Source: Candidatus Bathyarchaeia archaeon
Lineage (GTDB): Archaea > Thermoproteota > Bathyarchaeia > Bathyarchaeales > Bathycorpusculaceae
Assembly (NCBI GenBank): GCA_049512935.1
Contig: JBEKWR010000001.1
Coordinates: forward strand, 128,001-192,000
Reading direction: 5' to 3'
DNA: 64,000 bases
A program made the position numbers and the translations under genes. This document shows positions 32,809 to 37,822 of the stretch, piece after piece. Below the pieces are notes generated by a model. It searched no databases. It was not told the origin of the DNA and saw only the letters and a program-made list of their open reading frames with translations. Every line of letters begins with the position of its first letter. The first letter of the stretch is position 1.

Positions 32809-33996
32809 ATGTCAAACGTCGTTTTGAAAGAAGGCGTAAACTGGGTTGGAGTTATCGACTGGAACTTACGGGACTTTCACGGTTACGTCACCCGTCGAGG
32901 CACCAGCTACAACGCGTACCTGATAAGAGACGAGAAAACAGCCCTCATTGATACGGTGAAATACAATTTCGCCGAAGAGCTGGCGCGGAACATTACGGAG
33001 TTGACAAGCTTTGAAAAAATCGATTACATCGTCGTTAACCATGTGGAGATGGATCATTCAGGCAGCTTCCCCGAAATCGCGAAGCTGGCGAAGAACGCCA
33101 AGATAATCGCGTGCCAAAGAGGAAAAGACGCGCTTATTGAGCATTACGGCGAGGAGTTCAGCAGGGTTGAAGTCGTCAAGACAGGCGACGAGCTTAAACT
33201 GGGCAAGCACACGCTGCGTTTCCTTGAAACACCAATGCTGCATTGGCCAGACAGCATGTTCACTTACCTCGTGGAAGACAAAATCCTGTTTTCAAACGAC
33301 GCTTTCGGCGAGCACTACGCAACCTCGGAACGCTTCGACGACGAAGTTGACCAGCAGGAGCTCATGGAGGAAGCAAAAACTTACTACGCGAACATCTTGA
33401 CGCCCTTTGCGCCACTCATCACCCGAAAAATCCAGGAGGTCGTTCAGATGGGCATCCCCATCGAAATTATCGCGCCTGACCACGGCGTGATTTGGCGGAA
33501 AAACCCATCCAAAATCATCAACGCCTACTTGCAGTGGAGCGCGTTCACCTCTGTGCAGAAGGTCATAATTGTTTTTGATACGATGTGGGGAAGCACGGAC
33601 AAGATGGCGCGAGCCATAGAAGAAGGGGTAGCCAGCGAGGGCGTAGAAGTTAAAGTTCTAAAGCTGCGGGCAACGGACAGCACCGACGTCGTAACGGAAA
33701 TACTCGACGCCAAAGCAGTCATTGTGGGTTCCCCGACGCTTAACAGTGGCATGTTTTCGACGCTGGGTTCTTTCTTGACTTACGTAACGGGGCTGAAGCC
33801 TAGAGGCAAACTGTGGGCGTTCTTCGGCTCCTACGGATGGGGCGGCGGCGCAGTCAGAGGCATGGTTGAAATGGCGAAGAAAGTAGGCTTCGAAGTTTAC
33901 GAGCCAACCGTTGAGGTAAAGTATGTTCCTGACGCGGAAGACTTGAAGAAATGTTTTGATTTCGGGCAGCAAATAGCTCAGAAAATCAAAGCTTAG
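32809..33996 (+). CDS. fprA: Flavodiiron protein (FprA)
   Basis: HVEMDH, LHWPD, DAFG, PDHG plus flavodoxin domain (FGSYGW). Confidence 0.96.
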   Translation: MSNVVLKEGVNWVGVIDWNLRDFHGYVTRRGTSYNAYLIRDEKTALIDTVKYNFAEELARNITELTSFEKIDYIVVNHVEMDHSGSFPEIAKLAKNAKIIACQRGKDALIEHYGEEFSRVEVVKTGDELKLGKHTLRFLETPMLHWPDSMFTYLVEDKILFSNDAFGEHYATSERFDDEVDQQELMEEAKTYYANILTPFAPLITRKIQEVVQMGIPIEIIAPDHGVIWRKNPSKIINAYLQWSAFTSVQKVIIVFDTMWGSTDKMARAIEEGVASEGVEVKVLKLRATDSTDVVTEILDAKAVIVGSPTLNSGMFSTLGSFLTYVTGLKPRGKLWAFFGSYGWGGGAVRGMVEMAKKVGFEVYEPTVEVKYVPDAEDLKKCFDFGQQIAQKIKA

Positions 33997-34067
33997 CCCT
34001 TTCCTTCCCTTTTGCATCTGCTTTCGGAAAAATAGAAAAAATAAAAACAAAATTGGGGTGACAGCGC

Positions 34068-34571
34068 CTATTGTATCAACTTGAATTTTGCTTTCGGCGT
34101 GCCGCAGATCGGGCACTTGTCAGGCGCGCTGCCTTCAAACGTGTTTCCGCAGACGGGGCACACCCAGTAATCCGCTTTCGCTGGCTCCTTTTTGTTCTTC
34201 AAAGCGTCAAGAGCTTTCTGGTACATGCCCGCGTGGATTTCCTCAACTTTGTTCGCGTATTCGAAGCTGACTTGGGCTTTTTTGTTTCCAGCTTTCATAG
34301 CTTCAGCGATAAACTCAGGGTACATTTTCTTGAACTCATACGTTTCGCCGCTGATGGCTGTGCTAAGGTTGTCGCTGGTTGATTTCACGTGCCCCATCAC
34401 TTGGAAGTGGTTGAGCGCGTGCACCGTTTCCGCCTCAGCTGCCGCCCTGAAAAGTTTAGCAATCTGGGGAAAGCCTTCCTCGTCTGCCTTCTTAGCAAAA
34501 GCCAGATACATTCGGTTAGCTTGGGATTCGCCTGCGAAGGCATCTTTTAGGTTCTCATCGGTTTTAGTCAT
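34068..34571 (-). CDS. rbr: Rubrerythrin
   Basis: AFAGESQA, ETVH, EEIH, CPVCG..CPICG. Confidence 0.96.
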   Translation of the reverse strand: MTKTDENLKDAFAGESQANRMYLAFAKKADEEGFPQIAKLFRAAAEAETVHALNHFQVMGHVKSTSDNLSTAISGETYEFKKMYPEFIAEAMKAGNKKAQVSFEYANKVEEIHAGMYQKALDALKNKKEPAKADYWVCPVCGNTFEGSAPDKCPICGTPKAKFKLIQ

Positions 34572-34780
34572 ATCAAAATCACCGCAGAATACTAAACCAC
34601 ATTAAGGTTATAAGCTAAACGGATTTAGCCCAAATTTCTGTTAAGGGATACTGTTAAGTGATTTGTCATGACCGAAACCTTGCAACTTCCGTGATTACCC
34701 CCGATAGCCAAACCTTATAACCAAACTCAATTAAATCTATCAGTTATTGCCGCTAAACCGAGAGGGGGCAAACCTTAATC

Positions 34781-35326
34781 GTGCTCGAAGTCCCACATTT
34801 CGGACAAGCCACTGACCATCACTGTGTTCCTACTTGCCAGAAAATGGTTATAGAATATGCGAGACAAACTCTTGGTGTTGACTGCCCTGTTTTGTCGATT
34901 AAGAAAATCGCTAGAATTACAAGAATAGACAGAGATGGTGTTGTCCCAGAGTATGCAGAGAAGGTCAATGAACTTCTAAGAAGAACCAAGCCACCGATGA
35001 AATTCCAAACTCAATTTGGTGCCGAATTTAATGATATAACAAATGAGCTTAAGGAAAACAGACCAGTGATAGCACTGATAAACACAAGGGAACCGCCAGA
35101 TGAGTTGGTTCATGCGGTAATCATTGTTGACTTTGTGCCAAATCGGATTTGGTATCATGACCCTGATGAAGACGAGAAACATGCGGTTAAAGCCTTAGAA
35201 GTTGGTGTTTTTATGAGTATGTGGGGATGGAAAAATAGGTTGATAAAGCTTTTAATATCTAAGCAACAACAGACAACTATCGGAGATTACAACAAGCAAG
35301 ACCAAATGGAGGATGACCAAGAGTGA
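34781..35326 (+). CDS. Peptidase C39-like (papain-fold) cysteine protease
   Basis: VPHFGQ..HHCVPTC, RPVIA, HAVII...YHDP (Gln/Cys/His/Asp set). Confidence 0.85.
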   Translation: MLEVPHFGQATDHHCVPTCQKMVIEYARQTLGVDCPVLSIKKIARITRIDRDGVVPEYAEKVNELLRRTKPPMKFQTQFGAEFNDITNELKENRPVIALINTREPPDELVHAVIIVDFVPNRIWYHDPDEDEKHAVKALEVGVFMSMWGWKNRLIKLLISKQQQTTIGDYNKQDQMEDDQE

Positions 35327-36282
35327 CAATGGCTGACCAAGTAGTGCAAAGATATGCCTTCTCACACTACGGTCATCTAATCTTGGTTGATGAGCCAGTC
35401 TTTGACGAAAGTGAAAACTGTTATCTATCGAATCTACGTTCTGACTATCCTTTTACAATCAAAGATGACAAACTACCGAATGAGCGGTCAGTTTGTCTAT
35501 TAAAGATGGATCACCTTGGTTGCATAGCGGTTGGAAAGGACTTTAAGATTATCCAAGACAAGACAACAGCAAGAATTGATTGCATAAAAAACATTGACTC
35601 ATTCTTTGAAGCGTGGAAAAGAAGAGCTGAGCAAATTGTTATTTCAGAATCCGCCAACAACCTCGCTCGGATAACTCGCTTTGAACACTTTTTCGAGCCA
35701 GTTGATTCTATCCTTGGAGCTTTGTGGAAATACCACTTTGTGGATGATGTGGAAGTCAAAGCAGAACCAATTATTGAACGGAGAAACAAGCTTAAGTTGT
35801 ATCTGGAATTGCTAGAGGGGCTCAAGATTGTTCGCAGAGTTTACAAAGGTTATGAAGAGGGACCATTATCACTATTCCTCAGAGATGAGAAACAGGCTAA
35901 AGAACGACCCTGTAATAGGGAAATATACAGGAACCGAGTTATAGCTGCACTCATAAGAGATAGATATACGACTTTAAGAGATGTTTTCAAGTTAACAATT
36001 TTTGAACGCACAGTACACTTTGATAATTGCGTTTATCTCCCTGAGATCGAGACGAATAAACCAGTTTACCGAACGGTAGAGTCAATGCAAAACCAGTACA
36101 AAAGATTCTATGGACAGAAAATTAGTAAGATGACTACAGAACTAATTTTAGATCAGCTTAAGGAAGTAGATGCAATCAAACACGATGGCAAGCACTATTT
36201 CGGCAATGAAACTCTAAGACGAAAAATGATTATGGTTAAAGAAAAAACTCCCTTGATCAGTCGGGAGTTTTGTTTTAGATAG
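35323..36282 (+). CDS. Hypothetical protein translationally coupled to the C39 peptidase
   Basis: 319-aa ORF overlapping the upstream stop (GTGA); possible wHTH-like segments. Confidence 0.8.
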
Positions 36283-36404
36283 CTATTTTTCTTTTTGTCT
36301 CTTTTTCCCTATTTCGTCAGGGCAAATCACTTAACAGTATCCTTTTAAGGCAAAGTATATTAGTTGTTTTTCCCTTAGGTTTGTTTCAGTTTTTGGTGAA
36401 TTTT

Positions 36405-37019
36405 ATGGAGAAAGTAAAATCGTTTAGTCTACCAAAACTGCCCTACGACTACAATGCCCTTGAACCCTACATTTCCGAGACGCAGCTAAAACTCCACCAT
36501 GACAAGCACCACCAAGCCTACGTGAACGGCGCAAACGCGGACTTCGAAAAACTTGACAAGGCACGAAAAGAAAACGCCGAAGTCGACATGAAAGCCGTCA
36601 TGAAAGACTTATCCTTCAACGTCGGCGGACACCTCTTGCACTCGATCTTTTGGGAAAACATGGCGCCCGCAGGCAAAGGCGGCGGAGGACAACCTGGCGG
36701 AGCCTTAGCCGATGCAATCAACAAGGAATATGGAAGTTTCGAACAGTTCAAGAAAGAATTCACGAAAGCCGCGGCAACCACGGAAGGTTCAGGTTGGGCT
36801 GCCTTAGCTGTTCACCCATGCATAGAGAGACCGCTGATAATGCAGATTGAGAAGCACAACGTCAACGTTTACCCATCATTCAAAATCCTAATGGTCCTGG
36901 ACGTTTGGGAACACGCGTACTACGTTGACTACAAGAACGAGCGCGCCAAATACATCGAAGCCTTCTGGAACGTCGTCAACTGGGACCGCATAAGCAAAAC
37001 CCTAAGCCTCCAAAAATAA
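36405..37019 (+). CDS. sod: Fe/Mn superoxide dismutase
   Basis: [28 protein letters not shown]. Confidence 0.98.
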
Positions 37020-37077
37020 AACCTTAAAACAACCAATCTTTTTTCTACCATTTCTTAACCCGAGTTTAAGAAACGTT

Positions 37078-37737
37078 TCAGTTTCCGCTTTCCAAGCTTT
37101 TAAGCAGGTCCCTTTGCCGTTTACTAAGGACCGAGGATAACCCTTTTTGAAGGTAGATGGACACTGCGGCTATGCTTTTTGTCGGGTCATTTCTCATCTT
37201 TATTGAATACAGGTGAACAAGTTTGGTTCCCACCTGCTCCTTAGAAATCTGCCCCGCGGTAATTCTCATCGCTAGTGAAACAGCGTCGTTAATCGAGCTG
37301 CCCGCGGCGACTATCCTGATTTTTTCAAATTTTGCAAGCCGCAGAAGGCTTATCGTGAGAAGCCGCTCCATACTTGCCGCCCTGCTTACGCTGACGGTTT
37401 GTTCCTCGACGTCTTCAAAGCCCTTTTCCTCTTGTTCTGCTGCTTGTGCGTAATCCCCAATTTGCTTTTGCCCCAGATGCACGGAAATGGCGGATGCTTT
37501 GCCCAGCGCTGGCGACTCCAGGTTCCCGATGAATATGTCTTCAACATAGACTTTAGCGATTTCTGACGCCATGTTCACGGCTGAACAAGCCAGAAAAATC
37601 CCGTCGTTCACTCCCACAACGTCAACTTCTCCAGATTCCATTATGCAGGAGATTATTTCTTCAACAACATCCGTGGTTTTTGCTGAAGCGTCAGAGGGAA
37701 GAACCGTAATGACTTTGCCGTTTTGTTCGGGACTCAT
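37078..37737 (-). CDS. Tandem (double) Alba-like domain protein
   Basis: VDVVGVNDGIFLACSAV and IRIVAAGSSINDAVSLA each resemble the Alba core; both halves end in SAISVHL / AAVSIYL strands. Confidence 0.6.
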   Translation of the reverse strand: MSPEQNGKVITVLPSDASAKTTDVVEEIISCIMESGEVDVVGVNDGIFLACSAVNMASEIAKVYVEDIFIGNLESPALGKASAISVHLGQKQIGDYAQAAEQEEKGFEDVEEQTVSVSRAASMERLLTISLLRLAKFEKIRIVAAGSSINDAVSLAMRITAGQISKEQVGTKLVHLYSIKMRNDPTKSIAAVSIYLQKGLSSVLSKRQRDLLKSLESGN

Positions 37738-37822
37738 AGGTGATGCACTAAGCAGCTATTTGGAGCGTCTGCTAATATAACACTTGCCACTTTTTCCAAA
37801 AAAAAATAAAAACGGGCGCCGC

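Follow-up and report, generated by a model that had tools for sequence, protein, structure and literature searches.

A transposase-less cassette between rbr and sod of a Bathyarchaeia archaeon, probably mobilised by a cargo-bearing family of IS6-like transposons

Mobile insertion cassettes (MICs) have been recognised in bacteria, where MIC231 of the Bacillus cereus group is derived from IS231 and Tn3-family MICs occur in Xanthomonas. The accessible portions of a review of the IS6 family of insertion sequences (IS) describe canonical members of 0.7–0.9 kb with 8-bp target repeats and ends that usually start with GG, mention a zinc finger in some long bacterial members, and record one passenger-carrying member (ISDsp3) and two miniature inverted-repeat transposable elements (MITEs) (PMC7986276). 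Harmer and Hall, in the part of their work that was accessible, list archaeal members with ends starting GA, among them ISPfu5 with a 9-bp target-site duplication (TSD) (their Table 5), and argue that the archaeal members do not belong in the IS6 family (PMC6807381). Here we describe a putative MIC of 1695 bp in a 64-kb window (the whole stretch of DNA that was analysed, positions 128,001–192,000 of contig JBEKWR010000001.1) from a Candidatus Bathyarchaeia archaeon, in which it lies between the genes for rubrerythrin (rbr) and Fe/Mn superoxide dismutase (sod). Bathyarchaeia are abundant archaea of sediment and peat that are rarely cultivated, and no account of their mobile DNA was found in the literature searched.

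We read the interval 34647–36341 as a non-autonomous transposon, a MIC moved by the trans-acting transposase of an IS6-like family, and assign this reading a probability of about 0.8; mobilisation of the cassette in trans is the part of it that we infer. Coordinates given without a contig label are positions in the window. G000 is the window's own assembly (49 contigs, 93% complete), and L-numbers (L044, L055, L167 etc.) label the individual genome or metagenome loci that were compared. The cassette and its borders are made up as follows.

34638–34646, no strand: left TSD copy CTGTTAAGG; matches the right copy at 8/9 positions; one related copy stands at the empty site of relatives
34647–34672, + strand: left terminal inverted repeat (TIR), 19 nt perfect, 24/26 extended; 27 of the first 28 positions equal the right end of the transposase-bearing element E_C6
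34673–34780, + strand: non-coding leader from the left end to open reading frame (ORF) 1, without an ORF of its own; presumed promoter region
34781–35326, + strand: ORF1, 181 aa, stand-alone C39-like papain-fold cysteine peptidase (by Pfam, conserved residues and fold)
35323–36282, + strand: ORF2, 319 aa, uncharacterised; N-terminal beta-hairpin domain, long helices and two winged-helix-like units
36239–36315, + strand: hairpin over the ORF2 stop (inverted repeat 36239–36252 / 36263–36276), then T-runs; presumed transcription stop before sod
36316–36341, − strand: right TIR (inverted-repeat search, motif scan and direct reading)
36342–36350, no strand: right TSD copy CTTTTAAGG, ancestral-looking; relatives have cttcaagg, cttaaag or ctttaaag directly before CAAAGTATATTAG
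36351–36363, + strand: conserved CAAAGTATATTAG upstream of sod, putatively a TATA box; present in all 15 aligned relatives with small variations

The terminal 19-mer GATACTGTTAAGTGATTTG is found at 34647–34665 (+) and 36323–36341 (−) with no mismatch between the arms; direct reading of the extended ends gave 24 identical positions out of 26, and an inverted-repeat search extended the arms to 30 nt at 90% (34643–34672 / 36316–36345). These are the only two matches to the 19-mer within the window at up to three mismatches, for which the chance expectation of a pair is 0.01, and two or more matches were obtained in 0 of 100 shuffles. The 9-bp flanks CTGTTAAGG and CTTTTAAGG are identical at 8/9 positions; by our arithmetic a 9-mer match with at most one mismatch at a fixed offset has a probability of 28/4^9, or about 1e-4. 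The GC content of the cassette is 0.394 compared to 0.477 genome-wide, which appears in a sliding-window profile as a dip to 0.35–0.42 between flanking genes of 0.48–0.53. Its two genes overlap by 4 nt on the + strand, and the remaining ORFs within it (44–104 aa) overlap ORF1 or ORF2 and are mostly antisense. Neither ORF1 nor ORF2 matched a transposase or integrase model in Pfam or NCBIfam. An initial annotation made from the sequence alone had proposed the perfect ends and their extension, the 9-bp duplication, the AT-richer interior and a coupled gene pair lacking transposase and integrase, and all of these were confirmed. Two metagenome contigs that include the region (L049, L050) are identical to the window over 8957 bp.

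In order to find the state of the site before insertion, we searched 40 relatives with positions 33000–37800 of the window. The cassette was present between rbr and sod in none of the 40. The flanking genes were matched in all 24 same-genus genomes, and the spacer was examined in the 15 of these in which rbr and sod are adjacent on one contig. It was uninterrupted and 120–246 bp long in 13/15, so that the empty rbr-sod site, for which the initial annotation had proposed to look, does exist in relatives. Each of the short spacers includes a single target-like 8–9-mer (cttcaagg, cttaaag, ctttaaag) abutting the conserved CAAAGTATATTAG, which in the window lies directly 3' of the right TSD copy. 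Since the single copy of relatives precedes CAAAGTATATTAG, the right copy CTTTTAAGG seems to be the ancestral one, with a T replaced by G in the left copy.

The genes on either side are rbr (34068–34571, − strand), with a flavodiiron-type protein gene further to its left, and sod (36405–37019, + strand). A/T-rich motifs are kept in all 15 aligned relatives, one like taataagctata at rbr (34607–34618) and one, caaagtatattag, at sod (36351–36363); these are putative TATA boxes or core promoters. The spacer between the two motifs varies freely in length and sequence among relatives, which fits with tolerance of insertions. The cassette was thought at the outset to split an oxidative-stress gene pair; it is indeed inserted between rbr and sod, but it lies within the stretch bounded by the two divergent promoter-like motifs, and both motifs and both genes are uninterrupted.

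The two remaining spacers measure 406 bp in G004, where the length is unexplained, and 1155 bp in G019. The latter includes a 990-bp insert (L042:179–1168) at the equivalent position, directly before CAAAGTATATTAG. Its ends are degenerate, with the common core TCTGTTAA and 20/34 identical positions between them, and it has one ORF of 208 aa with an N-terminal hydrophobic stretch. Possibly a cassette of this family entered the same spacer at an earlier time and has decayed here.

A transposase that could act on such ends is encoded in the same genome. The TIR has nine matches in G000 at up to three mismatches, compared to none for the reversed control, and three transposase-bearing elements are present.

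G000 C6:110584–114140: E_C6, 3557 bp, perfect 9-bp TSD GGTAGGCAG
G000 C5:60281–66116: E_C5, 5836 bp, perfect 9-bp TSD CTATGGATC
G000 C3:27773–31198: E_C3, 3426 bp, variant end GATACTGTAAACTTATCTG, perfect 9-bp TSD CTTCCTTCT

All three are AT-rich (GC 0.38–0.39), and in each a single gene codes for a protein of roughly 300 aa whose N-terminal part has a CxxC...CxxC motif. A tblastn search with the family transposase found only these three copies in G000 (C6, C5 and C3) and none on contig C1. The gene is intact in E_C6 (305 aa; G000:C6:112403–113320) and E_C3 and has one in-frame TGA in E_C5. The E_C6 protein passes the NCBIfam IS6 equivalog NF033587 (129.6 bits; cut-off 125), matches Pfam DDE_Tnp_IS240 (PF13610, E 4.1e-20) and also matches an IS1/IS1595-type zinc-binding domain model. 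Across the family the transposase has about 295–305 aa, with an N-terminal Cys4 zinc ribbon, a helix-turn-helix region and a DDE domain of the IS6/IS240 type, in which D113, D172 and E212 are invariant in 16 aligned copies. Family ends begin GATACTGT(T/A)AA. Direct reading showed that the left end of the cassette equals the right end of E_C6 at 27 of the first 28 positions, and both ends of E_C6 differ from the 19-nt TIR of the cassette by a single nucleotide. Thus the TIR does recur in this genome on a transposase-bearing element, as the proposal of mobilisation in trans implied, and E_C6 combines these ends with a perfect TSD and an intact DDE transposase.

Some further features of the elements in G000 were observed. 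The E_C5 transposase gene (G000:C5:62560–63606) is 74–75% identical to the E_C6 copy and, with its single in-frame TGA, may be a pseudogene. The right end of E_C5 is doubled (G000:C5:66065–66116): an inner TIR of the ...TTATTTG type is followed 26 bp further out by an outer one of the ...TCTTTTGTGGT type, and it is to the outer one that the perfect 9-bp TSD belongs. A relative (L047:4542–4580) has this inner and outer arrangement too, there without a TSD; such doubled right ends may reflect nested or end-swapped elements. A second transposase-less cassette of 1319 bp, with ends GATACTGTTAAGT and GATACTGTTAACT, lies at C6:92354–93700 (L015:2355–3701). It has one ORF of 354 aa without a Pfam match and no TSD, and its right end is followed by 9 bp (GTATCCTTG) and then by a left end of another subtype (GATACCGTTAAGTCTTTTGTGGTGG), for which no partner was found.

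Extending the search to other genomes and to metagenomes, we found 23 distinct elements that have both ends and a 9-bp TSD.

Genome collection: 13 elements, 12 with perfect TSDs and one 8/9; L141 duplicates L081
Relatives: 2 elements, L081 (3405 bp) and L084 (3125 bp)
Metagenome loci: 5 elements, L055, L058, L059, L062 and L066
Own genome: 4 elements, the window cassette, E_C6, E_C5 and E_C3

The TSD is 9 bp long in 23/23 and perfect in 21; the two 8/9 cases are the window cassette and L167. A transposase is present in 11/23 elements (3125–5836 bp), all of which carry several cargo genes, and none of these 11 is an IS of about 1.2 kb with a transposase gene alone. The other 12/23, of 674–3782 bp, are transposase-less. 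Nucleotide similarity between elements is confined to the transposase region, and no close full-length parent of the window cassette was found in this comparison. The co-cargo of sister elements is of the conflict type and includes PIN, NYN and ParB_N proteins, an 863-aa DNA methylase and a UPF0175/DUF3368 pair. One three-gene block, coding for a protein of about 360 aa (361 aa in E_C5), a UPF0175-like and a DUF3368-like protein, forms the right part of E_C5 (G000:C5:63905–66083) and is also the whole cargo of the transposase-less L167 (L167:2658–5200), which indicates that cargo modules are exchanged between elements. A target preference CTnnnAAG, resembling the element's own end, had been noted post hoc in the first ten TSDs and was dropped, as 0/12 new TSDs fit it.

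The transposase is patchy and low in copy number, being found at E<=1e-20 in 20/151 genomes sampled from the order and in 2/12 other genomes of the genus. Loose 13-mer scans were noisy (75 matches at up to two mismatches compared to 40 for the reversed control), and ends were therefore counted only with an extended match or as pairs with a TSD. An exact TIR scan with N at position 14, using one genome per species, yielded 104 stretches. Among the 80 matches listed of these 104, 63 have Bathyarchaeota or Bathyarchaeia titles (one 'Crenarchaeota archaeon') and 16, all single matches, have bacterial or Methanobrevibacter titles; by our arithmetic about 17 are expected by chance for 18 fixed bases in 2 x 596 Gb, close to these 16. 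The same 80 also include one contig titled Nitrosopumilales (L142) with two exact 19-nt ends on the same strand, 879 bp apart. This pair is unlikely to be due to chance, and it could stem from a mis-binned contig or from a spread of the family outside Bathyarchaeia.

In the proposed mechanism, a transposase supplied in trans would bind both ends of the cassette, the best helper candidate in the genome being the intact E_C6 copy, whose ends differ at 1 of the first 28 positions. It would cut the 3' ends and join them to the target DNA with a 9-bp stagger, and repair would duplicate the 9 bp. The cassette would thus have been placed in the spacer between the divergent rbr and sod promoters, leaving genes and promoter-like motifs intact.

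Several observations weigh against this reading. The cassette is present as a single copy in its genome, so that nothing points directly to repeated movement of this copy. Its TSD carries one mismatch, and its right end deviates from the family consensus at positions 20 and 22, so that the insertion may be old and its ends may no longer work. Position 14 is T in the ends of the candidate helper E_C6 and G in the cassette. Moreover, the accessible portions of two sources attribute to IS26-type IS6 chemistry the formation of cointegrates and not of simple insertions (PMC7986276, PMC6807381), and a simple insertion as seen here would then need a further recombination step or a different mechanism.

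The cargo of the cassette recurs elsewhere, linked to the same ends. A homologue of ORF1 lies directly upstream of the ORF2 homologue in 20/20 metagenome loci that have upstream sequence, and the gene order is the same at locus L044, in a genome from another family of the order. After removal of truncated contigs and duplicates (L049 and L050, both equal to the window; L065 = L068; L066 = L067; L069 = L070), 15 distinct pair loci could be assessed. The left TIR was found about 90–260 bp upstream of the ORF1 homologue in 10/15. No flanking TIR was found by motif or inverted-repeat search at the other five (L051, L054, L056, L060 and L044), so that a recognisable element does not enclose the pair in every case. 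Three pair-bearing cassettes are transposase-less and have perfect TSDs at unrelated sites (L058, 1809 bp; L062, 2291 bp; L055, 2566 bp); in L059 (4634 bp) and L066 (5551 bp) the pair is accompanied by a transposase and further cargo, and in L061 it is followed by a 62-aa transposase fragment. Protein identity to the window copies falls to 35–50% across the pair loci, which means that the linkage of the pair to the elements is old. Judging by gene order and neighbouring ends, ORF1 and ORF2 thus appear as a fixed pair that travels as a unit with the transposon family.

These loci also bear on the strongest alternative, decay in situ, according to which a full-length element of the order TIR-peptidase-ORF2-transposase-...-TIR first entered the rbr-sod spacer and internal deletion afterwards removed the transposase and other cargo, the short form never having moved as a cassette. 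In favour of this, full-length relatives with exactly this gene order do exist (L059, L066), a transposase remnant stands behind the pair in L061, and the window cassette is single-copy, its TSD mismatched at 1 nt and the inner part of its right end diverged. However, only 40 bp separate the ORF2 stop from the 19-nt right TIR (59 bp to the element end), and no transposase remnant is found there. The pair-only cassettes L055, L058 and L062 belong to divergent lineages and have perfect 9-bp TSDs at unrelated sites, and eight more transposase-less elements with other cargo are likewise flanked by 9-bp TSDs, seven of them perfect and one 8/9. Insertion of short forms as such thus does take place in this family, and we regard decay in situ as unlikely.

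ORF1 matches Peptidase_C39_2 (PF13529) with an E value of 2.7e-8 and 34.9 bits (cut-off 24). Its residues Q9, C15, H111 and D127 are invariant in 15 homologues and would, by analogy with C39 peptidases, be the catalytic ones. A sequence search against PDB returned only AvrRpt2 (E 0.38), and a fold search was thus needed to place the protein. With an AlphaFold2 (AF2) model of predicted local distance difference test (pLDDT) 79.2, Foldseek gave matches to C39 peptidase domains, the best being the PCAT1 peptidase domain 7n87 (E 3.0e-6), with 3k8u at E 7.1e-5; in all, 31 PDB chains matched at E<=1e-3. ORF1 is stand-alone and cytoplasmic-looking, and the cassette includes no transporter.

ORF2 had no match in Pfam, NCBIfam, PADLOC or PHROGs. 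It has 93 representatives at E<=1e-3 among 1.84 billion proteins; of 63 homologues, 60 are 313–322 aa long, none bears a function name, and the two with a named organism come from one Bathyarchaeia and one Limnocylindrales bacterium. The AF2 model (pLDDT 89.4) consists of an N-terminal beta-hairpin domain, long helices and two helix-helix-helix-hairpin units. Foldseek searches of PDB and BFVD gave local winged-helix matches only, none at E<=1e-3, and a sequence-profile search of PDB gave only Rio2 (E 0.097). Rows of the ESM Atlas point to double winged-helix and FokI recognition domains, all below 0.9 and taken as leads only. From the modelled fold, ORF2 is probably a DNA-binding protein.

A protein of no known family with two winged-helix-like DNA-binding units raises the alternative that ORF2, alone or with the peptidase, is a new type of recombinase or transposase recognising these ends, and that the cassette is autonomous. 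The position of the pair beside the left end, fixed across elements whose proteins are only 35–50% identical, would agree with this. Yet the same ends bound transposase-bearing elements that lack the pair (E_C6, E_C3, L081, L084, L110, L129, L143 and L182) as well as the eight elements that have neither pair nor transposase, the TSD is 9 bp whether the pair is present or not, and searches of PDB and BFVD at E<=1e-3 revealed neither a nuclease nor a recombinase fold in ORF2. An autonomous cassette is very improbable on these grounds. Less probable still, and in effect refuted, is that the locus is no transposon at all, whether two native genes that happen to lie within an inverted repeat or an island placed by a trans-acting site-specific integrase: the cassette has no recombinase inside, and its flanking 9-mers are partly palindromic so that the inverted repeat appears to extend 4 nt outwards, but the 19-mer pair has a chance expectation of 0.01, its ends are common to 22 other TSD-flanked elements, relatives have empty sites, and it is DDE transposition, not att-site recombination, that characteristically leaves 9-bp direct repeats beyond inverted ends.

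In a model of the complex, predicted with alignments of both proteins, median ipSAE was 0.63 compared to 0.33 for the best control, a mark reached by 58/80 solved complexes and 2/110 mismatched pairs; at least 81% of contacts agree between runs and partner pLDDT is at least 83. ORF1 and ORF2 are thereby predicted to bind each other, the scores being those of model confidence and not of measured binding. Three points count against the reading of the cargo: of the three runs (0.26, 0.73 and 0.63) one scored low, the predicted interface includes neither the putative catalytic Cys15 nor His111, and PADLOC defence models gave 0 families for both cargo proteins at E<=0.1. The pair does not look like one with a housekeeping function. 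Our best guess, held with low confidence, is a two-protein conflict or regulatory module, e.g. a protease-controlled DNA-binding switch, which would benefit the element. A more specific version is tentative and rather improbable: the pair would be a new transposon-borne module, a protease-gated DNA-binding switch that either controls movement of the element at the adjacent left end or acts in addiction or defence to keep the element in its host, and, together with the transposase-less cassettes, the family would form a modular 'cassette shuttle' for conflict genes in Bathyarchaeia. If true, this shuttle would have in Bathyarchaeia the role that integrons and Tn3/Tn7 elements have in bacteria.

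The interest of the cassette itself is moderate; that of the family it revealed, and of the unexplained transposon-linked protein pair, is higher. Through the cassette a family of IS6-like transposons came to light. All of its transposase-bearing copies observed here have cargo, and its autonomous copies are no more common than its transposase-less cassettes and MITE-sized forms. The short ends, the 9-bp target signature and a candidate helper transposase make up a possible gene-delivery tool for archaea, and the tight linkage of the uncharacterised protease and DNA-binder pair to a transposon end makes its function testable. A literature search, with supplementary files outside its reach, returned no description of this element family or gene pair, and the accessible portions of two archaeal surveys contain none.

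Compared to known systems, ORF1 shares its fold and its Gln/Cys/His/Asp set with the C39 domains of bacteriocin-exporting ABC transporters (PCAT1, ComA). It differs from them in being stand-alone, without a transporter nearby, and paired with a winged-helix protein, and by our own reading the ORF2 consensus has no double-glycine leader. ImmA/ImmR is the protease-repressor switch of ICEBs1. Toxin-antitoxin pairs are described, in the accessible part of one source, as accessory parts of Tn3-family elements (10.1101/848275). The present pair resembles these systems as a small two-gene module that has stayed beside a transposon end over long divergence, and as a protease with a DNA-binding protein; searches of Pfam, NCBIfam, PADLOC and PHROGs related it neither to toxin-antitoxin or ImmA/ImmR families nor to those of defence.

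The parent family has to be compared to IS6/IS26, whose archaeal members in ISfinder include ISPfu1, ISPfu2 and ISPfu5. The initial annotation had likened the ends of the cassette to IS6-type ends, and the link stands at the level of the transposase, which passes NF033587 and PF13610, and in the possession of short TIRs. It does not extend to the ends themselves, which read GATACTG, with G at position 7 and without the GG start, nor to the TSD, which is 9 bp and not 8 bp in every element of the family. The 11 transposase-bearing elements, at 3.1–5.8 kb with several cargo genes, are also far from the canonical 0.7–0.9 kb, and the 12 transposase-less derivatives are at least as common as autonomous ones. 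As the parent passes the IS6 profile but fails the TSD, length and GG-end features, and as archaeal membership is disputed, we call it IS6-like. With one passenger member and two MITEs recorded in the accessible portions of the IS6 review (PMC7986276), the clade widens what IS6 chemistry is known to carry.

The MIC is a known category, and it is the IS6-like family itself for which the literature searched holds no description. The window cassette agrees with MIC231 and the Tn3-family MICs in that its ends match those of an autonomous element, a transposase is absent, passenger genes are present, the TSD has the length of the parent's, and mobilisation in trans is presumed; its two conserved protein genes set it apart from a MITE. 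It differs from those MICs in its parent, an archaeal IS6-like element, in its cargo, an uncharacterised peptidase and winged-helix pair, and in that the parents all carry cargo themselves.

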